This document shows positions 1 through 22,926 of a stretch of 64,000 nt of DNA, one piece after another; position 1 is the first letter of the stretch, and the number at the start of each line of letters is the position of its first letter. The notes beneath the pieces were generated by a model. That model searched no databases, was not told the DNA's origin, and saw only the letters and a list, made by a program, of their open reading frames with translations. Origin of the DNA: a virus; IMG/VR virus record IMGVR_UViG_3300042475_001686, positions 1 to 64,000 of that record; one strand, 5' to 3'. Made by a program: the position numbers and the translations under genes.

Positions 1-146
1 TCCATCTCTGTCATTTCGCCAAACGTATACCAGTCTTTCCAAGGTTTATTGTTTTCATAATACTCAATAATTTCTTCAGGGTTTTTTAATGCATTGTGAA
101 AAACCCAAACAGTATCATGTATTTTTTCAATATTGAAATCAGGCAT
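1..146 (-). CDS. 5' part of a probable further 2OG-Fe(II) oxygenase (runs off the window)
   Basis: ATG at 146 overlaps the upstream stop. MPDFNIEKIHDTVWVFHNALKNPEE..WKDWYTFG resembles the N-terminus of 2299..3189 (IFVYNNVFEDPE..WQDWYIFG). Confidence 0.6.
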   Translation of the reverse strand, partial: MPDFNIEKIHDTVWVFHNALKNPEEIIEYYENNKPWKDWYTFGEMTEM

Positions 147-877
147 TACATGCCTGCGTTTCTGCTCAAATCCATATTATTGTGAATCCAGTGTCCAGGA
201 ACCATATACTTTACCCCAGACTTTACTGTATGTGCTGTATGGAAATATGGTGCATTTGCTGGGAATATAATAACGCTATTTGCCTTTGGCTTTATTCCAA
301 AGTCAATTGCTTTATTTGCAACTGCATCATCATAATCTAAATTTACTGGGGGAGCACCGTGCACCCATCCGTCTTTGCTATTCCAGCCTCCGTCATAATC
401 CTTTAACTGGAAAGATATTTCTCCTCCCTCACAATCATCATTTAAATACATAACTAGAGAGTACCTGAGTGTCTTGTCTCCATCTAATTGATCAAAGTGT
501 GCTCCCATTGCCATTCCAGTGTAATACTTTTTAATATTAAAAGTTGGAAATAGTCTTGGCTCATCAAAATCACCCATAGCCTCTGCATAATCTTTGCATA
601 CATTATAGAGAGTAGTCATTACTGCATCATAAATATATTTAGACTTTTCTCCAACATTACCGCCAAAGTTTGCTATTGAGTTTGGATCAAATGTTTTAGT
701 TTCTCCATATATGAAATCTTTATCATTAGAAGATGTCCACTTTTGCCAAACATTTACCTGAGAAATATCATCAGACTCCATGGTATCTAACTCATTCAGA
801 GTGGACATAAAATTATCAAAATTTTCTATAGCGTCTGTATAGTAATAAACTTTTGGATCTAAAATTTCTCTATTCAT
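146..877 (-). CDS. 2OG-Fe(II) oxygenase, prolyl 4-hydroxylase-like
   Basis: HFD...YLNDDCEGGEI...FHTAH..GVKY facial triad motifs. Confidence 0.85.
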   Translation of the reverse strand: MNREILDPKVYYYTDAIENFDNFMSTLNELDTMESDDISQVNVWQKWTSSNDKDFIYGETKTFDPNSIANFGGNVGEKSKYIYDAVMTTLYNVCKDYAEAMGDFDEPRLFPTFNIKKYYTGMAMGAHFDQLDGDKTLRYSLVMYLNDDCEGGEISFQLKDYDGGWNSKDGWVHGAPPVNLDYDDAVANKAIDFGIKPKANSVIIFPANAPYFHTAHTVKSGVKYMVPGHWIHNNMDLSRNAGM

Positions 878-885
878 TATTTCTC

Positions 886-1545
886 CTAGTATTTGTGTTT
901 TTCATAATGTCTTTTTTCCTTTACAAATCCAACTATAACATATCTTATTGGTCCGTCTTGAACATGCTTTACTCCATGCTCATGCTTACTATCTCCAGGG
1001 AAAAATAACAAATCTCCTGGCTTAGGTCTTAGTTCTAAATCCAGATTTTTAAAAAATAGTTCTCCCTCTGCATAATCATCATTGATATAAATAATTGTTG
1101 CATATCTTATAGAAGGATCAGTATCCTGATCAACATGAGACTTTAGTTGTACTTCTGGCTGCATTCTTTGGATTGTAGCAAGACCACTTAGTTCTAATTC
1201 TGGAAACGAATCAACTATAAGATCTGATAGTCTTTTATAGAAAATATGTTGTTCTTCATGATGCTTAATATTTAAGTTTTTGTCTACCCAATTTTGAGTA
1301 ATTTCAAACTTACCCTCAGCAACAAGATTGTCAACATCATCTCTTCCAAACTTTTCCATGCAAAAGTTTTTTAGGTTGCCCATATATTCAACTTCCCAGT
1401 CTTCTTGAGAAGCAGAATTAATAATACCCCAAACAAAGTCTAACTCTTCTTTTGTTAAGAAATCTTTGATAAGTAAAACCTCATCTGTTATTTCTTCAAA
1501 CTTAAGATTATTGGTAGTTAGGTTTTGTTTGAATTTATCAATCAT
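886..1545 (-). CDS. 2OG-Fe(II) oxygenase, P4H-like
   Basis: HVD, YINDDYAEGELFF, HEHGV..RY. Confidence 0.85.
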   Translation of the reverse strand: MIDKFKQNLTTNNLKFEEITDEVLLIKDFLTKEELDFVWGIINSASQEDWEVEYMGNLKNFCMEKFGRDDVDNLVAEGKFEITQNWVDKNLNIKHHEEQHIFYKRLSDLIVDSFPELELSGLATIQRMQPEVQLKSHVDQDTDPSIRYATIIYINDDYAEGELFFKNLDLELRPKPGDLLFFPGDSKHEHGVKHVQDGPIRYVIVGFVKEKRHYEKHKY

Positions 1546-2302
1546 GAGGAATTACTCCTGTATCATCAACCTTATATTTATTACCATCAGCATCTAACTT
1601 CCAACCTTGCTTTAGCAACTCTTGCCATTCTGCTCTTTCAATCTCTTGTTTTGCTCTGGTTTCTTTCATCTCTTCTGCCCAGGCATCTCTTAGTTCTTGT
1701 GGATAAGCATCTTCTTCTCTATCATCCCAGAATGAGCCAATAGTGTATCTGACTCCTTTGGTTATTAGAGTTACCTCATGCATATTGTTGAATCCTCCGT
1801 CAAAAGCAGCAAGCATTCCAACTTTAGGCTGTATGCTTATCTCTTGATCTGAAAACTGTAGTAGTCCTCCCTCAAAGTCATCATTTAAATACAAAAATGC
1901 AGCATATCTACTTCTTGTAAAAGCACCAGAGTTGCCATGCTCATCTGTATTATCAGAATGTTTTCTTGCATAAGCACCTGGCTCCCACTTCTGAGTATGA
2001 TACCCAATTTGAGAAATTATGTTACGGTCAAGATCATGGACACTTGCAACAGCGTCAATGATGACCTCTTTTATTTGTGAAAAGATATCAGCAGGCAAGC
2101 CTTCAGAAAGAACATGTTCATCATCATCTTGAGGAAGAACAGAAGAATAAGATTCATAAAAAGATATTGGCATCCAACTAATTGTACCGAGTTCTGCATG
2201 CTTATCTAAAACCCTTACAAGTTTTGCAGCAGTATCAGCATCAATAAAGTTTTCATAAAGGACAATGTCCTTTGTCAGTCTATTTTTATTTTCTAGATTC
2301 AT
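1538..2302 (-). CDS. 2OG-Fe(II) oxygenase, P4H-like
   Basis: HSD, YLNDDFEGG, HEVT..GVRY. Confidence 0.85.
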   Translation of the reverse strand: MNLENKNRLTKDIVLYENFIDADTAAKLVRVLDKHAELGTISWMPISFYESYSSVLPQDDDEHVLSEGLPADIFSQIKEVIIDAVASVHDLDRNIISQIGYHTQKWEPGAYARKHSDNTDEHGNSGAFTRSRYAAFLYLNDDFEGGLLQFSDQEISIQPKVGMLAAFDGGFNNMHEVTLITKGVRYTIGSFWDDREEDAYPQELRDAWAEEMKETRAKQEIERAEWQELLKQGWKLDADGNKYKVDDTGVIPHD

Positions 2303-3189
2303 TTTATTCTAATTGCTCCTTCTATGACAGTTCTCTGTGGATGTTCTGTCATATAATCTTCTTGCATTTTTCTAAATACTTCAGGCCATTCTTCTTTGCC
2401 ATACTCTTCTTCCTTCTTTTTCCACTCATCAGAAGCGTCTTCGTAAACCTGCCAGTACATTCTTGTAAAGAACTTTTCATTTTCTTTACAGTTTTCTGCA
2501 GCATGTAGGTATACCTCGTTATCTTTAGTAAGGTAATCAGGATGTCCAGATGGAAAAACCAAGAAATCTCCAGCCTTTGGCTTGTAGTTAATAAGTTTAT
2601 TTCCTATAGCAAAATCTACCCCACCCTTTAAATAGTTATCATTCAAATATGTGGTTGTAGTAAGTACAAACTTATATCCTGGACTCTTTATTGATTCTCT
2701 AATATAATCAGAATGGTATCTCATTGCAAGTTCCCCGCCATTCCACTCTGATCCTTCTGAGTCTACAAAATAACGACATAGGGATGGGCCAGTCCAATTC
2801 CATTTAGGGTGATCTACTCCATAAGAACGAACTGTTTCATTTTTTTCATCTGGTATAGATAGGTTATGCTTTGACATATAGTCATTATTTACCAAATGGA
2901 ATGCTCTAACTAATTCTGTGATAAAGTATCTCTGATCCTCCTGAACCTTACTTGTTGGATCTATATCTTTTAAAATCTTAAGTTCTGTTGCAGTTTTATC
3001 AAAATGAAGTCCGAACTTTTCAATCTTTTTACCGAAGATATACCAATCTTGCCAATTTTCCCATATTGCATCATCATAATCATTAACTGAATCTTTAGCA
3101 ATCTGATACATTCTTTCTGGATCTTCAAATACATTGTTGTAAACAAATATATTTGGATATATCTCTTCTGCTGTAAAGTTTGTACTCAT
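2299..3189 (-). CDS. 2OG-Fe(II) oxygenase, P4H-like
   Basis: HSD, YLNDNYLKGG, FPSG..YLHAA..K. Confidence 0.8.
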   Translation of the reverse strand: MSTNFTAEEIYPNIFVYNNVFEDPERMYQIAKDSVNDYDDAIWENWQDWYIFGKKIEKFGLHFDKTATELKILKDIDPTSKVQEDQRYFITELVRAFHLVNNDYMSKHNLSIPDEKNETVRSYGVDHPKWNWTGPSLCRYFVDSEGSEWNGGELAMRYHSDYIRESIKSPGYKFVLTTTTYLNDNYLKGGVDFAIGNKLINYKPKAGDFLVFPSGHPDYLTKDNEVYLHAAENCKENEKFFTRMYWQVYEDASDEWKKKEEEYGKEEWPEVFRKMQEDYMTEHPQRTVIEGAIRIK

Positions 3190-3191
3190 AA

Positions 3192-3947
3192 TTACATTAT
3201 TCCCCTTCTAGGATCCCACTGTGATGTCTGTTCAGCAGTAGGGAAAATCCTATAATACTCTTTATTAAAATCTGGCTTAATCTCTCCAGTATGTTCTAAA
3301 ATTTCCCAAAAGAATGGGCAAGTATATCTATCTCCACTTATTACTTCTGATACACCGTGTACATAGTTCATATCGCCTGGGAAGAAATATGCAGAACCTC
3401 TTTTTGGCTTAAACTGTATTCCCTGATTTGGGAAATAGAGTTCTCCTCCTACATAGTCATCGTTTATATAGAATAAACTTGCTATGTCGTAATAAGGAAA
3501 GTCATTGGGCTTTCCAGCGTCTGGTCCAGAGTGTAATTCTTTATCTGCATGCGGAAGTTGATAATATCCTGGTGGCCACTTTACAATTGTTTGTCCTGTT
3601 GGTTGAACTTTTACTTTAAAAAAATCTTCAATGATTGGCTGAAGTCTATTAAAAAGTCCTACTATAACAGGAACAATTTCTGGATTATTTTTATTTAATG
3701 ATGGGGCACTAGCAACTCTATCTTTCCAATATCCAGCATCATATATTACAGTACCGTTTTCGTTTTTATGGCTTTCGGTTACATCCCAAACAGTGATGCT
3801 TCTGGCTGCATTATCTAAAAAGTCAACCTCTTCTTGTGTCATAAAGTTTTCTAGTTCAATAATATTTTCAGGACCACTTCCGAAAAACCCTGATGGGGTT
3901 AAGGATGGTTTTCTAACAACCTCTACTGCTTCTTCTGGCATCATCAT
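3192..3947 (-). CDS. 2OG-Fe(II) oxygenase, P4H-like
   Basis: HAD, YINDDYVGGELYF, HGV..GDRY. Confidence 0.85.
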   Translation of the reverse strand: MMMPEEAVEVVRKPSLTPSGFFGSGPENIIELENFMTQEEVDFLDNAARSITVWDVTESHKNENGTVIYDAGYWKDRVASAPSLNKNNPEIVPVIVGLFNRLQPIIEDFFKVKVQPTGQTIVKWPPGYYQLPHADKELHSGPDAGKPNDFPYYDIASLFYINDDYVGGELYFPNQGIQFKPKRGSAYFFPGDMNYVHGVSEVISGDRYTCPFFWEILEHTGEIKPDFNKEYYRIFPTAEQTSQWDPRRGIM

Positions 3948-3956
3948 TATATTATA

Positions 3957-4667
3957 TCACCCTGTTACCGTATTATCTTTTACAGAAAGTCTTAATGTCT
4001 TCACTTCATGAGAACCTAAAGACTCTCCCTTTTCATTTACTGCATCTCTATACCAGTCTGTCCACTGCCCAGATGAATTGACAACCTGTGCTGCCTGCCC
4101 ATAGTCTGACAGAGCCTTAAGCCTTAAGCCACCTTCATCAGTATAATTATTAATCTCGATAGAGGTATTGTTTAAGTGAGTTAGAGAAATAGGAATAATT
4201 GTAGCAATTGGAGTTCCTGCCTTTATTACAGTCTCAACATTTGCCCTTTTTGCCTTAATAGCAAGTGGTAATGGATTATCATAAAATGATGTGCTAATTA
4301 AATTTGATAATGTTTCAAAGTCTTCATTAAAATAATTAACTGGATTAATTGTTAAAATGCTTACATCTGGATCTGTTCTAAATACCAAAGATGTATTGAG
4401 ACTTACTGTAGATTGACCTCTTCCAGCATAGGAACCTTCTGGACTCGTAATAGTTATATGTTGATCTGTTTGATCATTAATACCGTCCCATGTAAATACT
4501 ATATCCTGAGTACAAGAAATATTCCATCCTACGACATTAGCCTGAGTTACTGGAAAACATCTGTATGCATGCTTTTCAGAAGTTACATCCATCCAATCTC
4601 TTTTTATAGACATTGGTTCTATTTTGAAAATTCCACCATGCATTTTTTCTACAGATATATTAAACAT
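3957..4667 (-). CDS. conserved phage protein, DUF6065-like
   Basis: RDWMD..HAYRCFPVTQAN..GW motif, typically found beside phage oxygenase clusters. Confidence 0.55.
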   Translation of the reverse strand: MFNISVEKMHGGIFKIEPMSIKRDWMDVTSEKHAYRCFPVTQANVVGWNISCTQDIVFTWDGINDQTDQHITITSPEGSYAGRGQSTVSLNTSLVFRTDPDVSILTINPVNYFNEDFETLSNLISTSFYDNPLPLAIKAKRANVETVIKAGTPIATIIPISLTHLNNTSIEINNYTDEGGLRLKALSDYGQAAQVVNSSGQWTDWYRDAVNEKGESLGSHEVKTLRLSVKDNTVTG

Positions 4668-5350
4668 TATTCATTTTCCCACTTTGGATCATACATGTCT
4701 GGAGTATGAAACTTTTTGCTATAGTCTAGCATTGTTACAATAGAATATTTTGTTCCAGAGTGAACTGGCATTGCTTGATGTGGATACATAAAGTTAGAAG
4801 GGAAGATATATAAATCTCCTGCCTTTGGTTTAATATTTAAGTCCTGTAATCTAAAATATAACTCTCCGCCATCGTAATCATCATTGATGTATGCTACCAA
4901 AGATACGGTACAGTTATACGAATAACCGTGGTCATGATGTTCCTTGAAGTGCTGACCTGGACCATACTTAATAAAGTTAAATGCTTCCCAATACTTTAGT
5001 GGCATAATGTTGTAATCTCTACGATAGTCATCAACTGCTGGAGCCTGTGCATCATAAACATCCTGCCATATTTTTTGTAACAATAAAGACTCTTCGCTTG
5101 GATCTGACTCAATGTCTGTCTTTTTATACTTAAAATCATAGCAATCACGATAGTCTGGCATTAATTGCTGATACCCAACATATGCTGGTAGCCAGTGATA
5201 TCTTTTTCCTTCTGGAGATAACTCTCCCCAAGGTGCTGGACTGCCCAAGACATCTTCCAATCTATTTATAATATCTAAATTTGGTTTAATAACATTTCTA
5301 TAAACCGTTATTCCATGACCAAGACTTTCTTTTTCTGTCCAAGTTGACAT
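4667..5350 (-). CDS. 2OG-Fe(II) oxygenase, P4H-like
   Basis: HHDH, YINDDYDGGELYF, FPSNFMYPH..GTKY; start moved to MSTW (GGAG RBS). Confidence 0.85.
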   Translation of the reverse strand: MSTWTEKESLGHGITVYRNVIKPNLDIINRLEDVLGSPAPWGELSPEGKRYHWLPAYVGYQQLMPDYRDCYDFKYKKTDIESDPSEESLLLQKIWQDVYDAQAPAVDDYRRDYNIMPLKYWEAFNFIKYGPGQHFKEHHDHGYSYNCTVSLVAYINDDYDGGELYFRLQDLNIKPKAGDLYIFPSNFMYPHQAMPVHSGTKYSIVTMLDYSKKFHTPDMYDPKWENE

Positions 5351-5358
5351 CTTTGCTC

Positions 5359-6135
5359 CTATTTGTATTCTCTTCTTGTCCAAACTTTATCTTTGTATAC
5401 CCCGCCATCTGGCTGGCGATAAAAGTTTGCGTTATCTACCATTTTACCATAGATCTTGCTTGACTCCAAAATGTCAATATCATGTTGCCAATTTTCTCTT
5501 TTAAAAGGCAATACTTGTAAATATGGAGTTCCTGCTGGGATTGTTCCTTCCCAACCATCTACAATAAAAAATGGAAAACTTCCTAATACTTCTACCTTAT
5601 CAGAATCCACTACTCCTGTTGTATTAAGAAATGGTAGATCAAACCTATTCATTGGGGTCATGAATAAAGCACTGTATCCTTCTGGCAGCCTCATTCCCCA
5701 GTCTGGCATCCATGCAAAATGATCTTTATAGTATCCTTTAGGGTGTTCAAATTGTGGCATCTGTGGCCTTGCTGTACAAAAATCTTTATACATTTCATTT
5801 TGAATTTTCATATCTAGAGATCCTCTAGAGTTTTTAGTAAATGTTATATCACAAGGAGTTTTAAAAACATACCCAGTAATAAAAGCATCCATAATTGCTG
5901 GACAGGCTTTCCATGTTGGTATCATTCCATAATCGTCTGTTGTTCCAGGTTTTGGGAATGGACACACCTCTCTTGGTGCTTTATAGTATTCTCCATTTAC
6001 AGGATTTTTAGCAAACCTATCTGCATCCTTATACCATTGTGGTATTTCTTTTTGTGTTGGAGTTGGAGTAGACTTACTTTTTTCTGTTAGCCAAGGCCTG
6101 TATGCCTTAAAAGATACTAAATTGTACTCATCCAT
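5359..6135 (-). CDS. conserved phage protein (KACPA...GTPYLQVLPFKRE family)
   Basis: Long ORF in the operon; CPA motif shared with 25397..26134. Confidence 0.55.
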   Translation of the reverse strand: MDEYNLVSFKAYRPWLTEKSKSTPTPTQKEIPQWYKDADRFAKNPVNGEYYKAPREVCPFPKPGTTDDYGMIPTWKACPAIMDAFITGYVFKTPCDITFTKNSRGSLDMKIQNEMYKDFCTARPQMPQFEHPKGYYKDHFAWMPDWGMRLPEGYSALFMTPMNRFDLPFLNTTGVVDSDKVEVLGSFPFFIVDGWEGTIPAGTPYLQVLPFKRENWQHDIDILESSKIYGKMVDNANFYRQPDGGVYKDKVWTRREYK

Positions 6136-6842
6136 TACTTATGACCTAACTCATTAATATCAGTCATGATTACGACACAATATTTTGTACCGCTCTTCAT
6201 TGGAAGAGATGCATGCTCATAAATGTAGTTAGATGGGAAAACCGCAATATCTCCGACTCTTGGCTTATGAATATATCCATCTAAGCGTGGGAACTGAATT
6301 TCTCCGCCATCATAGTCGTCATTGATATATATAACTGCTGAAACTGTAGCATTGTAGGCTGGTCCATGGTCAGCATGAATATTGAAGTGTTTTCCTTCAC
6401 CTTCATACTTTACAAAATTAAATGCCTCATAATAGACAACACTAATTCCCCAATACGCTGCATAATTATCTATACAAAACTTTAATTTTTGATAAATTTC
6501 TTCATGAAGATCTATTAACTCTCCATTAAATTCATCTCTTGGCCCTAAGTTTTCTTGCTTATATTTAAAGTCTACACAATCTCTTGCTTTCTTGATTGGT
6601 GTTGTTGAATTAGTTACCTGTGCTTCTGACCAAGCATATCTCTTAGTGCCGTCTAAATTTGACTCAAGTGTTTTAATATATCTATCGGCATCATCTTTAC
6701 TAAAAACATTTCTATAAATATTAAGACCAAGGCCAGGATTTTCTACAACTATTCCACTAGGCAGGGTGCTTGTTGGATATCTATTTGATGCGGTCTCAGA
6801 TCTATCTTTTGTAAACCAGTGGTTTTGATTCTCATCATACAT
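6135..6842 (-). CDS. 2OG-Fe(II) oxygenase, P4H-like; paralog of 4667..5350
   Basis: HADH, YINDDYDGGEIQF, FPSNYIYEH..GTKY. Confidence 0.85.
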   Translation of the reverse strand: MYDENQNHWFTKDRSETASNRYPTSTLPSGIVVENPGLGLNIYRNVFSKDDADRYIKTLESNLDGTKRYAWSEAQVTNSTTPIKKARDCVDFKYKQENLGPRDEFNGELIDLHEEIYQKLKFCIDNYAAYWGISVVYYEAFNFVKYEGEGKHFNIHADHGPAYNATVSAVIYINDDYDGGEIQFPRLDGYIHKPRVGDIAVFPSNYIYEHASLPMKSGTKYCVVIMTDINELGHK

Positions 6843-6890
6843 AGTTATTTTTCTCCTTGTTAATATAGTATATCATAAATATGAAAAATT

Positions 6891-7352
6891 TTAATTGCTT
6901 TCTGGTGGGTAAAAATTATTTCCATCCCACAAATAACCCAAAACTACTTCTGGAAAGTCTGTGGCATCTAGGCCTATAACTTTTGATGTCATTGCAGCCT
7001 GCCATTTTTGACTATAAAACTCATCTACCTTTTTTATAAGATGTGCTCCAAAAACAACCTTATCAGTATTTAAAAATGCATAGGATATAAAGTTTTCATG
7101 TACTTCAATTCTATTTATTGTTGTTTTGGGAATAAACTTTGTACCGTCCCAAATTGATCCTATATCAAATGTTTTTGGGGTAGGGTTTAAACTAGAAACA
7201 TCAATAACCTCTACATCATTATTTGAAAATCCTTCAGACCAACGCTTTAAAGGATCTGGATACTGTTCTGTAACAAAAAATATATCAAAAACTTCATATA
7301 TATTTTCAAACTCTTCTAATTTTACAGCAAATACAAATTTTTTTTCAATCAC
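6891..7352 (-). CDS. hypothetical protein with duplicated GxxWDGxxF motif
   Basis: GSIWDGTKF and GYLWDGNNF. Confidence 0.5.
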   Translation of the reverse strand: MIEKKFVFAVKLEEFENIYEVFDIFFVTEQYPDPLKRWSEGFSNNDVEVIDVSSLNPTPKTFDIGSIWDGTKFIPKTTINRIEVHENFISYAFLNTDKVVFGAHLIKKVDEFYSQKWQAAMTSKVIGLDATDFPEVVLGYLWDGNNFYPPESN

Positions 7353-7591
7353 AAAGACTCCTTACTCCAAAAGCCTAAAGGACATTCTGCATTTTTTAAT
7401 TTAGTTTTTGCTACCATAAAACATCCACATTTTGTGCACTGTTTCGTAGCCTGTACTAAATGTGGACAAGCATTACATATAGACATTCTAGATTCAACTA
7501 TTTTTGTATCATTAATTAATTGTTTTGGATCTAATAAATGCCAAGGACGTGAGTCCCCAAGATTTTTTTTCCAATTTGACCAACCACTCAT
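7349..7591 (-). CDS. small Cys-rich protein (CxxC..CxxCGC..CP..W), copy 1
   Basis: Paralog of 16375..16614 and 26177..26380. Confidence 0.7.
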   Translation of the reverse strand: MSGWSNWKKNLGDSRPWHLLDPKQLINDTKIVESRMSICNACPHLVQATKQCTKCGCFMVAKTKLKNAECPLGFWSKESL

Positions 7592-7624
7592 ACTTAATAG
7601 TATATCACATCAGGTTTTGATGTT

Positions 7625-8416
7625 CTATACTACTTGGTCGTAGATTGCTTTATCTATATTGTCAAAAGATTCAATTCTTGCAATTTCATCTGAAGAAAGA
7701 GCGTCAAGAATGTCTGCTGTAGATGAAGGACCAGAAGGTAGTTCTGATGAACCTTCATTTACAACCTTGCTCATATCAAATGTTATATTTACATTATAGT
7801 TTTCATTAAACCATGCTGATATATCTTGACATGTTAAGTTAAGATTATCGTACTTATGCACAGAATAGAATGAAGATAAGTTACTCATAGCATTTTCTAA
7901 ACTAGTATTTTCATTACCAACAAACCAGGAAAATGCTTTTGATGTTGCAAGATCTTTGACTGCCTGAAGTTTATATTTATTTTGAGTAAATAACTCTGCA
8001 TCAAAAATCATAGAATCGGCAGGGTTACATATAAATCTTGCCTGCATATTTTTATGAATTTCAAAATTTGGATCATCAAAAACATAGTGCTTAAATTTAT
8101 CTGTTATTGATTCAAATTTAGTATAATCTGATCTTTTACTAAATACTCTATCATATAAATAAACAAAGATACTTGCTCTTACTTCTACTGGGTTTCTAAC
8201 TACTGACACAACATCTATATCTGGATTAACTGTTATTGGATATGTTCCCCAGTGCCCCGCAAGAAATACTTGTTCTGAAAGATTAACAGTATGAGGAGTA
8301 TATCCATCTCTTGTGTAATATGACAAGGAATTAGCATCTAAAACTGGAGATACAGATTCCTTTATAAAGTTTCCACCTGTTCTTGGTGAATGTAACACAT
8401 ATAGTTGCTTAGTCAT
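7625..8416 (-). CDS. sulfotransferase-family protein
   Basis: N-terminal LHSPRTGG (5'-PSB loop) and VVRNPVE..S (3'-PB) motifs. Confidence 0.65.
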   Translation of the reverse strand: MTKQLYVLHSPRTGGNFIKESVSPVLDANSLSYYTRDGYTPHTVNLSEQVFLAGHWGTYPITVNPDIDVVSVVRNPVEVRASIFVYLYDRVFSKRSDYTKFESITDKFKHYVFDDPNFEIHKNMQARFICNPADSMIFDAELFTQNKYKLQAVKDLATSKAFSWFVGNENTSLENAMSNLSSFYSVHKYDNLNLTCQDISAWFNENYNVNITFDMSKVVNEGSSELPSGPSSTADILDALSSDEIARIESFDNIDKAIYDQVV

Positions 8417-8464
8417 TTTGCTCCTCTACTATCTTTGTTTTAGTTATCATCATATCATATTCCT

Positions 8465-9556
8465 TTAACCCTGGCAGTTTCCACAATTGCTTGAAGAGCA
8501 CCATAGTGATGGTGGGCAACCCCAAGGATTATTGGACTGGTTTCCGCATTCGCCACTGCAGGATGGGGCTGACACGAAAGAAGGTGGGAAGAACGGGAAG
8601 AATGGGAAGAACGGTGGGAAGAACGGGAAGAACGGTGGGAAGAACGGGAAGAATGGGAAGAATGGTGGGAAGAACGGGAAGAACGGTGGGAAGAACGGGA
8701 AGAATGGGAAATAAGGTGGGAAGAACGGGAAGAATGGTGGGAAGAATGGGAAGAACGGGAAGTAAGGTGGGAAGAACGGGAAGTAAGGTGGGAAGAATGG
8801 GAAGAAGGGTGGGAAGAATGGTGGGAAGAATGGGAAGAATGGTGGGAAGAACGGGAAGAATGGTGGGAAGAATGGGAAGAAGGGTGGGAAAAATGGAGGG
8901 AAAAACGGCGGGAAGAATGGAAAGAACGGCGGGGTAGTATTAACAGTTCCAGTTGTAGCACCTGCAGATGATCCATTACCATTAATTGCAACAATAGTAT
9001 ATGTCTGAGATCCTGGTGCTGCTCCTGGGTCATTAGCATCATATGATGTTGCAGCAGCAGAAATACCAGTGTAACTTGATCCATCTGAACCAGTAATTGT
9101 ATAGGAGGTAATTGCTTTACCACCAGTTGCTGGTGCTGTCCATGTTATTCTGTTTGTATTTGCAGACAAAGCAGATCCAGAAGGTGATCCTGGTGTGTTT
9201 GGTACAGTTGTTACTGTAATTGATCCAGTTGTATCTGTTGCTGGGTTTGAGTTTGCTGTACCAGCATTATTCTTACCTCTAACAGTAACTGTATAAGTTC
9301 CAGCAGGAAGTCCAGTTAGTGTATATGAGGTTGAAGATGATCCTGTCTCAACTGTGCTAGTTGCTGGGTTTGTAGTAACTACATAAGTTGTTGCTGCAGG
9401 AGAAGTAGCAGGCAAAGTCCAAGATAAGTTAATCGCACCATTATTCCAACCTCTACCAGTTCCTACATCTGTACCAGTTAGACCTGTTACTGGATCTGGT
9501 TGTAAAAAGTTATCCTGTGCTGATGACTTAATACCTTTTCTTTTGCTTGTTGCCAT
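8465..9556 (-). CDS. virion-associated protein: two FN3-like domains, Pro/Phe repeat, Cys-rich tail
   Basis: LSWT.P..YVV..YTLTGLPAGTYTVTVRGKN FN3 pattern twice; long (PPFF/PFF)n tract; C-terminal CSGECG..CPPSLWC..CGNC. Confidence 0.7.
   Translation of the reverse strand: MATSKRKGIKSSAQDNFLQPDPVTGLTGTDVGTGRGWNNGAINLSWTLPATSPAATTYVVTTNPATSTVETGSSSTSYTLTGLPAGTYTVTVRGKNNAGTANSNPATDTTGSITVTTVPNTPGSPSGSALSANTNRITWTAPATGGKAITSYTITGSDGSSYTGISAAATSYDANDPGAAPGSQTYTIVAINGNGSSAGATTGTVNTTPPFFPFFPPFFPPFFPPFFPFFPPFFPFFPPFFPFFPPFFPPFFPFFPPYFPFFPPYFPFFPFFPPFFPFFPPYFPFFPFFPPFFPFFPPFFPFFPFFPPFFPFFPPFFPFFPFFPPSFVSAPSCSGECGNQSNNPWGCPPSLWCSSSNCGNCQG
8580..8935. repeat. coding minisatellite of 9-nt (GGGAAGAAY) and 12-nt (GGTGGGAAGAAY) units
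   Basis: Directly visible; encodes PFF/PPFF on the minus strand. Confidence 0.95.
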
Positions 9557-9587
9557 GCTATTCTCCTTTTTCTACTATTAAATTTTA

Positions 9588-11555
9588 TTACGCTGAGAGG
9601 TCGCCCATTACTACCCATGTATCTGTTGCTCTCTTGAAAAGAGTTGCAGATGACCACTGAGCACGTAACTTCAAACCTGGTGTAGCATTTACAGTTACAC
9701 CTACTGCTCCAGCAATTGTAATCTGACCTGCGCCAACCTGTAGTAGATCGATAGATGTTCCTACTGGGAAGGCTGTGGTTGAATTTGCTGGAATTGTTAC
9801 AGTAAATCCTGTTGCCTTATTGCATTCAATCATGCTATCTCTCAAGGCTAATCCACCTGTAGAGAGGTTATAGGTATCTGTTACTGTATTGATTGTAGTT
9901 CTTGATGGAACGCCTTCTTTTGTTTGAGTTCCGTCTGAGAAAACCACTCCAGAAGATGGAGTAACTGTGGTAGCCTCAAGTGCTCCTACAGCCAAGGCAT
10001 CTAAAGATCCTTGTGTAAAGTTTACAGTTGTTGTAGGTTCGTCTGTAACACCCTTAAACAACTTCCACTTTCCAGCAGATGAGTCACGAACAATACCTGC
10101 ATGCTGATATGTTCCATCGTTAAAGGATGAAACAATACCAAGGTCAACAAGGTTTCCTGTGTTTCCTTCACCGATATAAATAAGTGGGTCAGAAACCACT
10201 AAGTCTGTAGCAGAAACTGTTGTTGTTGTTCCTTGTACTGTAAGGTTGCCAGTAACAGTAAGTGCTGCTGCCGTAGTAGTTCCAGTAAATGTTGGTCCAG
10301 CGAGATTAGCCTTAAGGTCAAGTGCTGTTTGTGTAGCAGTTGAAACTGGCTTATCTGCATCTGATGTATTGTCTACATTTCCTAATCCAACCATTGTCTT
10401 TGTGATACCTGCAACGGTACCAGTAAATGTTGGTGAAGCAAGTGGAGCCTTTGCAGCAAGATCTGTAGTGAGATCTGCAATCTTAGACTGTGCAATTGCT
10501 GCTGAAGCATTTATGTCAGCATTTACAATTGTGCCATCTGCAATCTTGGCAGAAGTTACTGCACCATCAAGAATTTTAGCAGATGTAACAGCATCTCCAG
10601 CAATCTTGTCTGCAGTTACAGCAGAGTTAACAATCTTATCTGTTGAAACTGTATTATCTGTTGGAGTTCTTGTATCTGAAAGACGAGCATCGTCTGTTAG
10701 AACAAGTGCTGTAGTGTCTGCAATGCCGTGTACGCTTGTTGTATCTGAAGTGTGAGCATTTAGAGCACCTGTTATTTCTGTTCCAACATATGACTGTGTT
10801 GCAAGTTCTGCAGTGTCTACAATTCCGTGTACGTTAGTTGTAACTGCACTGTGAACAGTTGCTGAATCTACATATGCTTGGGTAGCAAGATCTGCTGTAT
10901 TACCAATACCATGTACGTTTGTTGTGTCTGAGTTATGTGCACTTACGGCACCTGATACTGCATTATCTGCATATGTTTGGGTAGCAAGATCTGCTGTATT
11001 TGCAATACCATGAACATTTGTTGTATCATTGTTATGCTCTGCTAAGTCTGCATCAAGAACAATAAGACTTGTGTCTGCAATGCCATGTACGTTTGTGCTA
11101 TCAGAATTATGTGTGCTTACTGCACCATCAGCATATGCTTCAGTAGCAAGGTCTGCTGTATTTACAATTCCATGTACATTTGTTGTAACAGCATTATGTA
11201 CTTCTGCAGCATCTACATATGCCTCAGTGGCAAGGTCTGCTGTATTTGTAATTCCGTGCACATTAGTGGAAAGATTTGTATGAGAAGAGAGATTTGTTGC
11301 TACTGTTATAAAGAAATCTGGATCGTCGCCAAGAGCAGCAGCGAGTTCGTTGAGTGTATTAAGAACACCTGGAGCGCCGTCTAGGATCGCATTTCCATCT
11401 ACATAATAGTTTAGGGCAGACCATAGTGATGATCCATTACCTATCTTAAACTTACCTGTGTCGGTTTCAAAACCGATTTCACCTGCTGCTAAAATTGGGT
11501 TAGCGCCTGACCACTGTGCTGCGGTTCCTCTGCGCTGTTGCATTCTTGTTGCCAT
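9588..11555 (-). CDS. tail fibre protein with His-containing repeats
   Basis: N-terminal RRGTAAQW..NPILAAGEIGFETDTGKFKIGNG fibre domain; 7 H-x5-(N/S)VHGI repeats; VTxAKI repeats. Confidence 0.75.
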   Translation of the reverse strand: MATRMQQRRGTAAQWSGANPILAAGEIGFETDTGKFKIGNGSSLWSALNYYVDGNAILDGAPGVLNTLNELAAALGDDPDFFITVATNLSSHTNLSTNVHGITNTADLATEAYVDAAEVHNAVTTNVHGIVNTADLATEAYADGAVSTHNSDSTNVHGIADTSLIVLDADLAEHNNDTTNVHGIANTADLATQTYADNAVSGAVSAHNSDTTNVHGIGNTADLATQAYVDSATVHSAVTTNVHGIVDTAELATQSYVGTEITGALNAHTSDTTSVHGIADTTALVLTDDARLSDTRTPTDNTVSTDKIVNSAVTADKIAGDAVTSAKILDGAVTSAKIADGTIVNADINASAAIAQSKIADLTTDLAAKAPLASPTFTGTVAGITKTMVGLGNVDNTSDADKPVSTATQTALDLKANLAGPTFTGTTTAAALTVTGNLTVQGTTTTVSATDLVVSDPLIYIGEGNTGNLVDLGIVSSFNDGTYQHAGIVRDSSAGKWKLFKGVTDEPTTTVNFTQGSLDALAVGALEATTVTPSSGVVFSDGTQTKEGVPSRTTINTVTDTYNLSTGGLALRDSMIECNKATGFTVTIPANSTTAFPVGTSIDLLQVGAGQITIAGAVGVTVNATPGLKLRAQWSSATLFKRATDTWVVMGDLSA

Positions 11556-11614
11556 TTATCTCTCCTTGTGGTATTTCTACCGTTTTATTTCTGTGCTAAT
11601 TATAACATCAGTTT

Positions 11615-12079
11615 TTAGTTGAAGTTATCTACTGGGCTACCGCCATCATAAACCATAGTCCATGAGTTGGTATTATAAGATCCACCATCTACTGGAGAAC
11701 CTTGTGGGTCATTAAAACTACCTCCACTTACGAAGGTAGAAACAATAAGTCCTGTTCCATCAATTGCTGTATCATGAATATGTTGTGGCAAGTTCAATGT
11801 ATCATCGATTGTTGCCATTGTTAGCCATGATCCAGAATAATAAACATTAACTCTTGATGTTAATGTGTCAAACCATAAATCACCATTTTCAGGTGAAGAG
11901 GGAGGGGTAGAACCTACTGGAATTCCTCCAGACAATGCGTCAACATATGCCTTAGTTGCAGCGTGAGTACCTAATGTAGGCGTTGCTACATCTACTGTAC
12001 CTCCGAAACTTCCGCCACCAGTGACGATAAGTCCATTTTTAACCTTGAAGTCCTTGTTGACTGTTGCCAAGATTACCAC
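11615..12079 (-). CDS. tail-associated protein
   Basis: KDFKVKNGL N-terminus shared with 12100..14004; PSSPENGDLWFD fibre motif. Confidence 0.6.
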   Translation of the reverse strand: MVILATVNKDFKVKNGLIVTGGGSFGGTVDVATPTLGTHAATKAYVDALSGGIPVGSTPPSSPENGDLWFDTLTSRVNVYYSGSWLTMATIDDTLNLPQHIHDTAIDGTGLIVSTFVSGGSFNDPQGSPVDGGSYNTNSWTMVYDGGSPVDNFN

Positions 12080-12099
12080 TCCCTCTTCTATTTATTTTG

Positions 12100-14004: not shown

Positions 14005-14020
14005 TTTATTATCTCCTTAG

Positions 14021-14467: not shown

Positions 14468-14490
14468 GGTGATATTATAACTCCTTTTTG

Positions 14491-14739
14491 TTACAAAATA
14501 TAATTACTGTATCCAATAATTTGAAGGGGTATTGGGGGTGGATTATTCTTTGAATATCCAAATACACCAACATTAATAAATTGGACACGGAAAGGCAGAA
14601 CTTCTTCTATTTTCGCTTTTGGTTGTATGTGATCAAACCTTACATACCTTTTATCTATTTCTTTGATCTGTGCGTGAGATCTTCTATGTGTTGTGTTAAA
14701 TAGTTCTTGGTTTACTGGTATAAGATTTTGATTAATCAT
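14491..14739 (-). CDS. hypothetical protein
   Basis: ORF within the structural operon. Confidence 0.45.
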   Translation of the reverse strand: MINQNLIPVNQELFNTTHRRSHAQIKEIDKRYVRFDHIQPKAKIEEVLPFRVQFINVGVFGYSKNNPPPIPLQIIGYSNYIL

Positions 14740-15125: not shown

Positions 15126-15142
15126 GTGTTGATTATATCATA

Positions 15143-16327: not shown

Positions 16328-16376
16328 AATAGGGCTTGATAATAAAATATTTTTATATCAGGCCCTATTTTTTTTT
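16328..16376. terminator. intrinsic terminator between convergent genes
   Basis: AATAGGGCTTGAT...ATCAGGCCCTATT followed by a T-run. Confidence 0.75.
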
Positions 16377-16614
16377 ACCATTTATTAATTGGGCATGAAG
16401 ATTTTTCTAAACTAACTTTCGCATACATTAAACATCCACATTTTTTACATTGTTTTGTAAGTTGAATTAATTCTGGACAACCAAGACATATTTGATATCT
16501 TTTATTTGCATTTTCTATAGTTGTTTTTTCTACGCTTGGATTTAATAAATGCCAAGGTCTTGTTTCACCAAGATTTTCTATATATCTTTTTAATGGTGAC
16601 TTTTTTTCTTCCAT
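16375..16614 (-). CDS. small Cys-rich protein, copy 2
   Basis: RPWHLL..ICLGCP..KQCKKCGC..CPINKW. Confidence 0.7.
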   Translation of the reverse strand: MEEKKSPLKRYIENLGETRPWHLLNPSVEKTTIENANKRYQICLGCPELIQLTKQCKKCGCLMYAKVSLEKSSCPINKW

Positions 16615-16635: not shown

Positions 16636-18009
16636 TTAGAATGTACAGTTACCACATGTAGTAGAGGTACAGTACAGTGAAGGTGGACAGTCATATCCTG
16701 CCCCACCGCCTGCTTGGCTTCCGCATTCTAGTGTACAAGTACTTGTAAATGTTGGTGGGAAGAAAGGACTCTGGAACGTTGGTGGGAAGAATGGTGTAAC
16801 ACTAAACGTTGGTGGGAAGAAAGGACTCTGGAACGTTGGTGGGAAGAATGGCGCCTGGAATGTTGGTGGGAAGAATGGCGCCTGGAATGTTGGTGGGAAG
16901 AATGGCGCCTGGAATGTTGGTGGGAAGAATGGCGCCTGGAAGTTCGGAGGGAAGAATGGATTAACCGTACATGTAGGAGTTCCTGATGCTTGTGTAGGAC
17001 CACAGACCCATCCAATTGGAGGATATCCGTTTGCGTTTTCTTGAGCAGCATATGCATCAGCACAGGACGATGTTGTTGAGAAAGGACCGTTTGGATTGTT
17101 ATTGAAATCACAGTATCCGTAGTAACTTGTTGTAGTCTGTTGGAACGTTGGTGGGAAGAATGGTGACTGGAAAGTTGGTGGGAAGAACGGTGTAAATGTA
17201 GGTGGGAAGAACGGAGGAGTGGTGCAAGATGTTATCGGAGTTGTTGTAACAGAGCCAGTCAATGATGCACTTATTGTGAAACAGAAAGTCTCAGCAGCAT
17301 TAGTTGCCTCTGTTGAGTTTGCAGCAGTAACAGATCCAACAGTATTATCATCGCAGCAGAAGTAGTATGTTGTTGTTCCTGAACTAAAGAATGGTGGGAA
17401 GAATGGAGGGAAGAATGGTGGGAAGAATGGAGTAATGGTGCATTCTGGAGTTCCATTTTGTGCTGTTGGTCCGCAAACCCATCCAATTGGTGGGTATCCA
17501 TTTGCGTTTTCCTGAATAGTATATGCTTCAGCACAGGACAATGTTGTTGAGAAAGGACCAACAGGGTTATTGGCTAAATCACAGTATCCGTAATAATTTA
17601 ATACTTGCTGGAACGTTGGAGGGAAGAACGGTGTAAATGTAGGTGGGAAGAACGGTGACTGGAATGTAGGTGGGAAGAACGGTGACTGGAATGTAGGTGG
17701 GAAGAACGGTGACTGGAATGTAGGTGGGAAGAACGGTGACTGGAATGTAGGTGGGAAGAATGGAGGGGCAACATAAGTATAATAAACAAAGGTTACATCA
17801 GTATCATAATCAACTAATGTGTCTGCTACTGGAACTTGAGAAGCAACCTTATTATCAAGTTGTGAATCTGAAGTAACTATAGAAGAGTCACCAACATTCT
17901 TAAGCCCTGAGTTTGTTATTGTGGTAATTGCTACGTTCTTTAAAAGACCTACAAGTTGCGGGACCTTTACCATTCCCTTTGCTAAAAACGGCCATAATGA
18001 ACTTAGCAT
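16636..18009 (-). CDS. PASTA-domain protein with PFFPPTFQ(S/A) repeats and Cys modules
   Basis: VKVPQLVG..VASQVP.ADTLV PASTA pattern; 27-nt repeats; duplicated YYGYCD..GYPPIGWVCGPT module; C-terminal ECG..CPPSLYC..CGNC. Confidence 0.7.
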   Translation of the reverse strand: MLSSLWPFLAKGMVKVPQLVGLLKNVAITTITNSGLKNVGDSSIVTSDSQLDNKVASQVPVADTLVDYDTDVTFVYYTYVAPPFFPPTFQSPFFPPTFQSPFFPPTFQSPFFPPTFQSPFFPPTFTPFFPPTFQQVLNYYGYCDLANNPVGPFSTTLSCAEAYTIQENANGYPPIGWVCGPTAQNGTPECTITPFFPPFFPPFFPPFFSSGTTTYYFCCDDNTVGSVTAANSTEATNAAETFCFTISASLTGSVTTTPITSCTTPPFFPPTFTPFFPPTFQSPFFPPTFQQTTTSYYGYCDFNNNPNGPFSTTSSCADAYAAQENANGYPPIGWVCGPTQASGTPTCTVNPFFPPNFQAPFFPPTFQAPFFPPTFQAPFFPPTFQAPFFPPTFQSPFFPPTFSVTPFFPPTFQSPFFPPTFTSTCTLECGSQAGGGAGYDCPPSLYCTSTTCGNCTF

Positions 18010-20924: not shown

Positions 20925-21647
20925 TTATATCACAGATACATATATAGAATTCATTATTACTGAGGAGTCGTAATCGGTTCTGATTTGAGGTACTGCCCCA
21001 GAACTCCACATGGAGTTATTTTCTATAAAGAAATGTTGTGTTACGTACATATTGTAGACATATTGGTATTTTAAAGATGCTACAAACTGTGAAATTTCGG
21101 TGGTAGATTTAGGGAAAAATGTTCTCATCCAAACCTCTGTATTATTAGAGTTAGTAGTTAACTCAAAGTTATAAGTGACAATTACTTGCGATCCTATTTT
21201 TAGGCCGTGTAGATTAAGCATTCTTTGTTCTGCATTCCATAGGCTTGTGCATCCTTCTGGCAGATATTTCTCGTTTGTATTACTGCCCTTCGAATCTACC
21301 CAAACATTTACCCAGCCATCTTCTCCACGATCAATGCCAAGGCTTACTGGTTTTCTGTTATCGTTAAAATATGCTGCCCATCCTGCTTGTTGTCCAGACG
21401 AAGATAAGGAACTTAGACCGTCTTTACCAGGTGTGCCTCTTTCGCCTTTGGGGCCTGGTGTGCCGTCTTTTCCAGCAGGTCCTTGAGGTCCAGGTAGGCC
21501 CTGTGGTCCTTGAGGCCCCTGTGGCCCAGGAACGGGTACATAGTTGATTAATACATCTGCATTTGTTGTTTGTGTTTGAACTACTTGTGCAGCATAACTA
21601 GATTTTTTGCTGCTATTTGGAAAGTCCATGGATTTAGAAACTGGCAT
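20925..21647 (-). CDS. collagen-like (Gly-X-Y) fibre protein
   Basis: [37 protein letters not shown]. Confidence 0.75.
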
Positions 21648-21664: not shown

Positions 21665-22375
21665 TTATTCACAAATATAAGAAAAAGACATATGGAATCT
21701 ATCAGTAGTTTCTAAAATAAATGGGGAGTTATGGTCAAATGGTTGATCTTGTGCAGAACTACCAATGTTCCAAACTGTCATTGTTGAACTTGCTGGAGAC
21801 AAATGCCCCTTAAGACTGTAATGATCAATACCCTGGTTTGTTATATTATGAATTGATCCGCCATAGACATCTGTATGATATTTAGATGGTAGTGGTATAG
21901 TAAGAGAATATTGTCCAGTTCCAAAATTAGTAACTGTTGAAAATAAAACATCTATTTGAACTATCACAAGATTACCAATTTTAATATATGATCCAGTAGC
22001 AGGAGTATTGGTATATGCTAATCCTGTACCGCTCCAAACTGGATTGTAAGAATTAATTGTTGTTGTTCCAGTGTCTAAGTTTGCATCTTGACCGTCTGCA
22101 CCGTCTTGACCTGGTTCTGCAATTGTTGTCCAATAAGATGTTCCTGGTGGATATCCTGGATTTGGTTCTCCGACTCTGTAATAAGTTCCTCCAGCGTATG
22201 TAACTACATCGCCAATATTATAATCTGCTCCGTTATTATATTCACCAACAAAATTCCATAATGCGTCTGCACCATTAGCGCCTGCAGGACCTGGTTCTCC
22301 TTGTGGTCCTGGATCTCCTTGTGGTCCAGTTCCTCCAGAACCCCCACCAATACCAGGGTGTGTAAACCGTGCCAT
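21665..22375 (-). CDS. collagen-like fibre protein with a small carbohydrate-binding-like module
   Basis: [16 protein letters not shown]; [14 protein letters not shown]. Confidence 0.65.
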
Positions 22376-22668: not shown

Positions 22669-22926
22669 TTACCAGATAGAACTTTCCCAAGGAATTCTTT
22701 TCCAAATGTGAACATTTCCATCTTCGTAATCTTCTATGCAAAAATAAAGATGATCTGATGAGTAAGCAATATATCCAGCCTTATCTCCGATCTTGCCTAA
22801 TGATGATGAAGGCATATCTGTTAAAACAAAATATGTATCTCCTGCTGGACCTTGTGGACCCGTTAATCCAGGATCTCCTTTGTCGCCCTTTGCACCTGGC
22901 ATAGGGACAATCTTAATAACTGCCAT
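22669..22926 (-). CDS. short collagen-like protein
   Basis: GAKGDKGDPGLTGPQGPAG. Confidence 0.6.
   Translation of the reverse strand: MAVIKIVPMPGAKGDKGDPGLTGPQGPAGDTYFVLTDMPSSSLGKIGDKAGYIAYSSDHLYFCIEDYEDGNVHIWKRIPWESSIW

Follow-up and report, generated by a model that had tools for sequence, protein, structure and literature searches.

A Pro/Phe-repeat protein of the tail fiber module encoded beside an array of prolyl 4-hydroxylase-type oxygenases in an uncultured lake phage

Introduction

What do phages modify with the 2-oxoglutarate (2OG)-Fe(II) oxygenases that they carry? Aquatic phages are rich in these enzymes, and their roles have been guessed at since at least 2010; the portions of two papers cited here propose DNA repair and 2OG drawdown (PMC3037559) and metabolite synthesis (PMC2938197), and the first of them, by Sullivan et al. 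(2010), links the 2OG oxygenases of cyanophages either to stress involving 2OG and nitrogen or to DNA repair. We analyzed a gene run in the first 64 kb (the whole stretch of DNA analyzed, hereafter the window) of the 117,492-bp virus record IMGVR_UViG_3300042475_001686, in which an FN3 protein with a long Pro/Phe tract is followed by an array of prolyl 4-hydroxylase (P4H)-type oxygenases. This system gives a concrete candidate substrate encoded beside the enzymes, and relatives that have low-Pro tracts and no array serve as its natural controls.

An earlier reading of the DNA letters (the sequence-only reading) had proposed that the phage hydroxylates, glycosylates, and possibly sulfates its own Pro-rich fibers. 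What supports the hydroxylation part of that proposal is comparative genomics, namely the P4H family of the enzymes and an array that tracks Pro-rich tracts, while glycosylation and a dedicated supply of 3'-phosphoadenosine-5'-phosphosulfate (PAPS) found no support. The best-supported reading is that the phage hydroxylates its own Pro-rich fiber-module tract; we give this reading a probability of roughly 0.5, on the strength of synteny, of co-variation set against natural negative controls, and of the family to which the enzymes belong.

Results

A Pro/Phe tract encoded ahead of an oxygenase array

The run from the fiber gene to the last oxygenase lies on a single minus strand, with gaps of at most 48 nucleotides (nt) or short overlaps, and it opens with two genes of the fiber module.

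9588..11555, minus strand: tail fiber protein with an Mtd_N head, first in the run (PF18454, 58.6 bits; tail PHROGs)
8465..9556, minus strand: FN3 protein, the candidate substrate, in which a 119-residue (PFF/PPFF)n tract precedes a Cys-rich tail (fn3 PF00041, 44.4 bits)

The sequence-only reading had described an FN3 protein with more than 100 residues of PPFF/PFF, and the tract was found where it had been placed. It spans residues 209 to 327 and consists of 51 Pro, 64 Phe, 3 Tyr, and 1 Ser, arranged as 17 PFF, 13 PPFF, 3 PPYF, and 1 PPSF units; the last 36 residues of the protein, behind the tract, form a tail that includes 7 Cys. At the DNA level, Tandem Repeats Finder reports an array at 8578 to 8933 with periods of 21, 30, and 51. 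Homologs of the FN3 protein number 424 database proteins at E <= 1e-3, and since all 14 of those inspected carry a Pro/aromatic tract, the tract is no chance reading frame. When lake metagenome contigs were compared with the window over 8602 to 8852, all five differing rows inside the array were 3-nt insertions, each of which adds one Pro codon on the coding strand, so that the reading frame is kept.

Contigs from two metatranscriptome runs were identical to parts of two to three oxygenase genes and of the sulfotransferase-like, FN3, and fiber genes. We take these contigs as a weak hint of expression of the run, because such libraries can hold DNA and the contigs give neither strand nor level; in these RNA runs, depth over 8401 to 9200 is inflated by repeat cross-matching, and the uncovered parts of the run are uninformative. 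Equally uninformative was a scan of positions 1 to 19000 for promoters and terminators, whose counts were at the level of shuffled sequence (69 versus 65.4 and 15 versus 12.0).

The oxygenases, named here by their first coordinate, lie downstream in the following order.

6135..6842, minus strand: P4H-type 2OG-Fe(II) oxygenase 6135 (PF13640, 42.3 bits; 41.6% identity to 4667-5383)
4667..5383, minus strand: P4H-type 2OG-Fe(II) oxygenase 4667, the core array member (PF13640, 59.1 bits; in the PDB, B. anthracis P4H at 4.4e-5, then LH3)
3192..3947, minus strand: P4H-type 2OG-Fe(II) oxygenase 3192 (PF13640, 32.1 bits; triad kept)
2299..3189, minus strand: divergent oxygenase 2299 (PF13640, 22.2 bits, below the cut-off; triad kept; 37% identity to the paralog at 116822)
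1538..2302, minus strand: P4H-type 2OG-Fe(II) oxygenase 1538 (PF13640, 39.2 bits; in the PDB, P3H1 at 2.7e-6 and B. anthracis P4H at 1.4e-4)
886..1545, minus strand: P4H-type 2OG-Fe(II) oxygenase 886 (PF13640, 43.4 bits; triad kept)
146..877, minus strand: P4H-type 2OG-Fe(II) oxygenase 146 (PF13640, 37.8 bits; triad kept; same array position in relatives)
3..146, minus strand: start of an oxygenase, its first 48 residues, cut by the contig end (probable remainder at 116822-117490; PF13640, 48.5 bits)

Every member that the sequence-only reading had assigned to this single minus-strand run, that is, a sulfotransferase-like gene, a Cys-rich peptide, and seven complete oxygenases plus one partial, was located there. 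The run also holds two DUF6065-type genes with a dUTPase fold (3957-4667 and 5359-6135) and one gene without a family (6891-7352).

PF13640 matched 7 of the 10 proteins tested within 146-7352, and six of these matches (32.1 to 59.1 bits) exceed the 27-bit cut-off. Across 11 aligned paralogs, His149 and His202 never vary, Asp151 is present in 10 (with Glu in the remaining one), and a Lys or Arg stands at +10 from His202; the paralogs also share a Y.ND.Y.GGEL.F block. Their nearest solved relatives are B. anthracis P4H (3itq), LH3, and P3H1, matched over the catalytic core only with E of 1e-4 to 1e-6. Profile, triad, and nearest structures thus support the assignment of the array oxygenases as P4H-type, for which prolyl hydroxylation is the predicted activity. 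Identity among the paralogs is 22 to 47% in local alignments (the best pair shares 41.6% over 214 residues), and by sequence they are old and distinct enzymes with no recent copies among them. Their order is conserved in related loci, running 6135, d5359, 4667, d3957, 3192, 2299, 1538, 886, 146, where d5359 and d3957 are the two DUF6065-type genes. As an alternative family assignment we considered TET/JBP- or AlkB-like DNA modifiers, which we rejected on the strength of a single weak Tet_JBP match (E 0.0059) set against consistent P4H and lysyl hydroxylase matches.

The array does not stop at the first base of the window. The partial oxygenase gene is apparently split between positions 1-2 of the window and the contig end at 117491-117492, with a frame offset of one base between the two pieces if the contig is simply circularized. 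Because this gene is divided over both contig ends, it is likely that the record represents a permuted and almost closed genome in which a minor assembly error occurred where the ends meet. The other contig end encodes, besides the probable rest of the eighth oxygenase, a short-chain dehydrogenase, a further oxygenase, a methyltransferase-like gene, a third DUF6065-type gene, and a ribonucleotide reductase (RNR); the array therefore continues there, and the true cluster is larger than the window shows.

Oxygenase number tracks the type of tract

Is the array tied to the kind of tract that precedes it? To address this question we used 305 loci, each including as much as 10 kb of flanking sequence in either direction, from four scans of a viral collection seeded by different FN3-family members. 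Identical proteins and tracts shorter than 15 residues were excluded before counting, as were loci with less than 5 kb downstream in which the RNR was not reached (less than 3 kb for the mini-protein and sulfotransferase counts given below). The loci have a conserved order of fiber genes, the FN3-repeat gene, optionally a gene of no assigned family and a mini-protein, the array, and the reductase. Their tracts fall into a Pro-rich class (PFF/PPFF, PPHF, PPGFF, and PFFPxFC) with 28 to 50% Pro and a low-Pro class (FSFxP, PFGFT, and PYSFT) with 6 to 23% Pro.

Among 192 informative non-identical proteins, at least three oxygenases stood downstream, up to the RNR or the locus end, in 114 of the 123 with Pro-rich tracts versus 1 of the 69 with low-Pro tracts, and the sole low-Pro exception is a short PFF tract mis-binned by the threshold. 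With one FN3 gene kept per locus (188 loci, the set used for the contrast-tree analysis) and this exception re-binned, three or more oxygenases lay behind 111 of 120 Pro-rich tracts and behind none of 68 low-Pro tracts (111, 9, 0, and 68 loci in the four cells). The sequence-only reading had pointed to co-occurrence of repeat genes, oxygenase number, and a GT60-type glycosyltransferase across relatives; oxygenase number indeed follows the Pro-rich tract, but no such pattern was seen for GT60 in five near-complete relatives.

Since related sequences share labels, the comparison was reduced to independent contrasts. The tree of FN3 heads gave 8 contrasts on starred branches, 6.8 of them concordant, 0 discordant, and 1.2 without a difference (median p of 0.0156, range to 0.0625); this tree and the tree of the upstream neighbor gene used below are both quick trees built without a mixture model, so their starred branches are less safe than usual. 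Smaller earlier trees (65, 101, and 59 rows) held too few contrasts, with p values of 0.25, 0.25, and 0.125. FN3 heads that are 74 to 80% identical to the head of one low-Pro protein are joined to PFF tracts and accompanied by seven oxygenases. This places the breakpoints at the passage from head to tract, and the tract thus travels with the array, not with the head.

Several points weigh against hydroxylation of the tract by the array. Nine Pro-rich loci have fewer than three oxygenases downstream; in one of the exceptions (L289), where the RNR is directly downstream, the array has been relocated upstream of the fiber genes, and most of the remaining ones have one or two oxygenases. On the tree of the upstream neighbor gene, six pairs gave 3.8 concordant, 0 discordant, and 2.2 without a difference (p of 0.125). 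As the tract adjoins the array, a single recombination could move both, and the co-variation thus shows co-inheritance, not necessarily function. Scattered PF13640 genes occur in three low-Pro genomes (1, 5, and 6 of them; two Pro-rich relatives have 11 and 8, and the studied phage has 10), and the studied phage has further oxygenases at 41 to 44 kb, distant from any Pro-rich gene, which means that such enzymes also have other targets. Within the array, two to three dUTPase-fold genes beside the RNR point to nucleotides, and two of them have no role in a hydroxylation model. The presence of 7 to 10 different enzymes for a two-letter polymer is likewise unexplained. Finally, the reference list of a chlorovirus review, which is the part of that review used here, carries an unpublished note reporting no hydroxyproline in virions of PBCV-1.

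Part of this evidence also bears on an alternative in which tract and array are co-inherited merely as neighbors, or through adaptation to a host clade, while the oxygenases act elsewhere, on collagen-like fiber proteins, other virion proteins, or envelope or translation proteins of the host. Adjacency alone predicts co-transfer; the neighbor-gene tree reaches only the p value given above; and low-Pro relatives retain one to six scattered P4H-type genes. Moreover, the fiber module of the window encodes collagen-like Gly-X-Y proteins with X-Pro-Gly sites (20925-22926), which are classical P4H substrates in principle.

20925..21647, minus strand: collagen-like Gly-X-Y protein with X-Pro-Gly sites
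21665..22375, minus strand: collagen-like Gly-X-Y protein with X-Pro-Gly sites
22669..22926, minus strand: collagen-like Gly-X-Y protein with X-Pro-Gly sites

One of the three matches PF01391 (30.6 bits). Low-Pro genomes without the array, however, have collagen-like genes too, and such relatives hold other Pro-rich proteins as well, with collagen-like fibers and PEPT or PPV repeats. Mere co-inheritance also fits poorly with breakpoints that fall repeatedly within the gene, between head and tract, and not between gene and array, and with the absence of any low-Pro tract followed by three or more oxygenases. We therefore consider this explanation unlikely, and hydroxylation of the tract remains the reading that we prefer.

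Ends of the repeat protein

Approximately half of the FN3-repeat homologs end in a Hint/intein-like domain of about 150 to 170 residues whose first Cys abuts the tract (for example, homologs P0016, P0025, P0030, P0043, and P0132 and loci L011, L027, and L063). A long end of this kind was counted in 98 of 204 FN3-repeat proteins. When nine homologs were tested, PT-HINT scored 29.9 bits (cut-off of 27.7) in one, six gave weak Hint or intein matches, and two gave none. The FN3 protein of the window has no Hint end and terminates in its Cys tail. In the homologs that have one, the Hint-like end suggests self-cleavage or ligation where the tract ends.

Such ends bear on a second idea in the sequence-only reading, that the repeat is processed like the multi-core precursor of a ribosomally synthesized and post-translationally modified peptide. 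The tract would then be hydroxylated and cut into small Pro/Phe peptides, with the FN3 head as leader and the Hint or Cys end as release module. Its units are indeed short, repeated, and hypervariable, the Hint/intein-like ends of many homologs could cleave at the tract end, and plant cyclic peptides with a Pro-Pro-Phe-Phe core are known, according to the part of that literature used here. Against this stand the position of the gene in the tail fiber module, an Ig-like domain typical of virion decoration, and the lack of cleavage sites between units. Furthermore, none of the 14 proteins of the run matched a protease, cyclase, leader or leader-recognition, or export family in Pfam or PHROG. We regard a peptide precursor as highly improbable.

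Other genes of the run

Between the repeat gene and the end of the array lie the following genes that are not oxygenases.

7625..8416, minus strand: sulfotransferase-fold protein (predicted model compared with sulfotransferase-fold chains)
7349..7591, minus strand: DUF6171-like mini-protein with six invariant Cys, C-x2-C-x9-C-x2-C-x-C-x12-C-P (25.2 bits, cut-off 27; phrog_13558, 7.9e-17; 35-row alignment)
6891..7352, minus strand: 153-residue protein accompanying the Cys mini-protein, which it adjoins in related loci
5359..6135, minus strand: phrog_7084/DUF6065-like protein with a dUTPase/dCTP-deaminase fold (model pLDDT 94.6; Foldseek; VIA)
3957..4667, minus strand: DUF6065 protein, paralog of 5359-6135 without G-I-I-D-x-D (PF19541, 99.7 bits; phrog_7084)

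By sequence comparison, the protein at 7625-8416 has no Pfam family (E <= 0.01), no PHROG, and no PDB match, and it has 8 relatives besides itself, none with a family. The fold that the sequence-only reading had seen in it is nevertheless borne out by a predicted model (predicted local distance difference test [pLDDT] of 73.3, from a 9-row alignment), for which all 37 rows listed by Foldseek are sulfotransferase-fold chains, the best being 4ndz_A (E 2.4e-4, template modeling score [TM] of 0.54). T13, G15, R74, P76, R80, and S82 are invariant in an alignment of 9 homologs, and they resemble the PAPS-binding motifs P-K/R-T-G-G and R-N-P-x4-R-x-S. In 13 of 204 loci, a sulfotransferase-like gene stands directly behind the repeat gene or behind the mini-protein that accompanies it, and in 8 of these 13 the preceding tract is low-Pro and no oxygenase follows. 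Thus, if the sulfotransferase-like enzyme acts on the repeat protein, it needs no hydroxyproline, and a required sulfation of hydroxyproline finds no support.

The mini-protein, in turn, follows one form of the repeat protein. It was found behind Cys-tailed forms in 29 of 52 cases, versus 1 of 152 for other forms, and in the window each of two Cys-tailed repeat proteins has its own copy. A complex prediction for mini-protein and Cys tail scored 0.01 against a mark of 0.32, a result that speaks neither for nor against binding. This coupling may follow the same logic as that of array and tract, at a second level. For its companion at 6891-7352 we found no Pfam family, and its best score in the ESM Atlas (0.87) brought no family either.

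The two DUF6065-type proteins raise the question of whether the array belongs to a different pathway. For the model of 5359-6135, the top 22 VIA rows are all of the dUTPase superfamily (Z of 9.3 to 5.5, with 93 to 130 residues aligned). Its G-I-I-D-x-D block, lost in 3957-4667, is present in two of the three paralog types. Relatives in phrog_7084 occur in haloarchaeal viruses, where they are annotated as hypothetical only. The dioxygenases, dUTPase-fold proteins, short-chain dehydrogenase, and methyltransferase-like gene beside the RNR could together form a metabolite or nucleotide pathway, as would suit the dUTPase/dCTP-deaminase fold with its G-I-I-D-x-D block, an array that abuts the RNR and continues into the dehydrogenase, oxygenase, and methyltransferase-like genes of the other contig end, and a tryptophan halogenase in the genome (352 bits). 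There is also precedent: Iyer, Abhiman, de Souza, and Aravind (2010; PMC2938197), in the portion cited here, report a tandem row of 10 dioxygenases in phage Syn9 and suggest secondary-metabolite synthesis as the role of the dioxygenase and halogenase arrays of cyanophages. Such a pathway gives no reason for the array to accompany one type of tract, however, and among solved structures the oxygenases are closest to protein hydroxylases rather than to TET/JBP or AlkB enzymes. The halogenase, moreover, is 46 kb from the array, and dUTPase-fold genes are also found in low-Pro loci without oxygenases. To us a metabolite or nucleotide pathway seems quite unlikely, and modification of the encoded tract is again the reading that we carry forward.

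A second repeat family

The window contains a second repeat protein, built on a different head.

16636..18009, minus strand: repeat protein with a PASTA-like head, Cys modules, and 19 PFFPP units (PFFPPTFQS type), sharing its Cys tail motif with the FN3 protein
16375..16614, minus strand: second DUF6171-like mini-protein, directly behind the second repeat protein

In 13 loci of this PASTA-headed family, a mini-protein gene comes behind the repeat gene in 10 and an oxygenase gene in 6. In the low-Pro relative G002, the corresponding gene (L169:9944-13404) encodes a PASTA head, PPV(T/V/E) repeats, Cys modules, and a Hint end, and it is followed directly by a P4H-type gene and then by two more genes of no assigned family. 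With an oxygenase following in 6 of 13 loci, the PASTA-headed family appears to repeat the pattern of array and tract. Its repeat units vary widely among relatives and include PFFPPTFQS, SPVG, PVT, PPV(T/S), PPSF, and PT.

Between the two fiber and repeat modules, on the plus strand at 15737-16324, lies a gene for a lysozyme-like transglycosylase with a hydrophobic N terminus (SLT_3, 54.4 bits). Long Pro/Thr or Pro/Glu linker proteins are encoded on the minus strand at 61631-63100 of the window and at 65382-66878 of the contig; the former has a weak Peptidase_M66 match (20.2 bits) just below the cut-off.

Glycosyltransferases, APS kinase, and distant oxygenases

The sequence-only reading had drawn genes from elsewhere in the window into the same system. 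A GT60 gene is present (PF11397, 79.6 bits), as are two GT32-type genes (PF04488, 52.7 and 44.3 bits). GT60 glycosylation as a part of the system is not borne out, as none of five near-complete relatives, two of them with full arrays, has such a gene; the control genomes also gave no match, so the sensitivity of this search is unproven. GT60 was the best label in only a handful of the first 156 loci.

The gene read as an adenosine-5'-phosphosulfate (APS) kinase (57656-58417, minus strand) does match APS_kinase (61.8 bits), but over residues 2-85 of 253 only. Residues 2-87 align to APS kinases (2yvu, E 5.7e-11), and residues 148-203 match a nucleotidyltransferase, with a motif of the G-x-x-x-P-x-H-x-G-H type in this second domain. 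By sequence, the protein thus unites an APS-kinase-like P-loop part with a nucleotidyltransferase-like part, and it could be a compact PAPS- or NAD-related enzyme. Its proposed service to the sulfotransferase finds no backing in relatives, since the fusion gene occurs in four of five (58 to 86% identity) and two of those four have no sulfotransferase-like gene.

The four more oxygenases reported at 41204-44044 came down to one solid case (41845-42642, 47.7 bits) and two weak ones (21.6 and 22.0 bits); the fourth has only weak cupin/JmjC-type matches, the JmjC-type one at 43505-44044. Two other oxidative enzymes are encoded in the window. A full-length catalase-peroxidase KatG lies at 48309-50393 on the plus strand (residues 2-693 match solved KatG, E 2.6e-287; no PHROG match). 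The tryptophan halogenase-type flavin enzyme mentioned above lies at 55577-57121 on the minus strand (PF04820), and its closest counterparts in phages, those of Pelagibacter phage HTVC008M and cyanophages, share 26 to 38% identity with it.

Genome and host

CheckV rates the record complete, and its ends are linear. In addition to the class II-like RNR, the genome encodes a portal, a prohead protease, a DnaE-type polymerase, and a DnaB-type helicase. Because the polymerase resembles those of Streptomyces phages (55% identity) and the genome contains a WhiB gene (PF02467, 45 bits), the host is likely an actinobacterium. Near-identical DNA is found in lake and freshwater metagenomes of at least 15 studies, and the phage itself is uncultured. 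Among isolated phages, we found no DNA match to positions 1-9600 and no protein match to the sulfotransferase-like and FN3 proteins.

Discussion

How might such a system work? We propose that the FN3 protein belongs to the tail fiber module and that its Pro/Phe tract is modified post-translationally by the enzymes encoded directly behind it. An ordered set of distinct P4H-type oxygenases would hydroxylate the tract, with Pro the likely target and other positions possible. The DUF6171-like six-Cys mini-protein would then serve the Cys-rich tail, and the sulfotransferase-fold protein would be an optional tailoring enzyme that acts on the same protein independently of hydroxylation. For the fiber, the result could be a polyproline-like stalk that is stiffer or stickier. 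Gene content, folds, catalytic motifs, synteny, and co-variation are what we observed; from these we infer that the enzymes act on this protein, which residue they attack, and how the fiber is affected.

More tentatively, a large group of lake phages may possess a modular code for tailoring such proteins, in which each hypervariable, low-complexity tract has its own matching enzyme cassette: P4H arrays are assigned to Pro/Phe tracts, a six-Cys helper to Cys tips, and an optional sulfotransferase is added, the product being a stiff or sticky stalk resembling hydroxyproline (Hyp)-Phe-Phe. A single hydroxyl can matter in such material: comparison of Hyp-Phe-Phe with Pro-Phe-Phe tripeptides demonstrated that one hydroxyl on Pro alters the packing and mechanics of helical aromatic-zipper fibers (PMC8113556). 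The unit of the phage tract is like these tripeptides, although a 119-residue polymer differs from free tripeptides in crystals or fibrils, and the comparison is an analogy only.

Should the tract prove to be hydroxylated, prolyl hydroxylation would be a means of making extracellular fibers that phages share with animals, plants, and giant viruses, and the Pro-Phe-Phe polymer would be of interest as a material. If the tailoring code suggested above is real, bacteriophages would have their first known example of a structural polymer tailored by enzymes, and phage oxygenase arrays that have long gone unexplained would have a substrate. Our literature search, which did not extend to subscription journals or supplements, found no paper on Pro/Phe-tract phage proteins beside oxygenase arrays; the supplement of Iyer et al. 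(2010) may list similar arrays.

Comparison with known systems

As far as the cited portion of Iyer et al. (2010) goes, the array described here is like those of the Syn9 type in having several distantly related classical 2OG-Fe(II) dioxygenases in a row and a tryptophan halogenase in the same genome. It is unlike them in that the studied array has no JOR/JmjC member, is joined to a tail fiber module, and belongs to a phage whose host is probably an actinobacterium. The same portion of that paper also describes bacterial operons predicted to hydroxylate and then sulfate collagen-like or tail-collar proteins (PMC2938197). Our proposal shares with these operons the idea of a co-encoded, low-complexity structural protein as the target of hydroxylation and sulfation. 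In contrast to them, the substrate candidate here is a Pro/Phe polymer on an FN3 protein and not a Gly-rich collagen-like or tail-collar protein; the sulfotransferase-like gene is independent of the oxygenases; and phage arrays, in that portion of the paper, are read as serving metabolite synthesis.

The catalytic cores of the phage enzymes resemble those of B. anthracis P4H (3itq), LH3, and P3H1 in their HxD...H triad and in a basic residue at +10. Unlike the collagen hydroxylases, the phage enzymes have no recognized peptide-binding domain, and their substrate would lack Gly.

A viral parallel may be found in the chlorovirus PBCV-1, for which Eriksson et al. in 1999 reportedly described a prolyl 4-hydroxylase in a virus with Pro-rich repeat proteins. 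PBCV-1 is similar to the phage studied here in combining a P4H-type enzyme with Pro-rich repeat proteins, and it differs in having one enzyme where the phage and its relatives have 7 to 10, in being a eukaryotic virus, and in reportedly carrying repeats of another kind.

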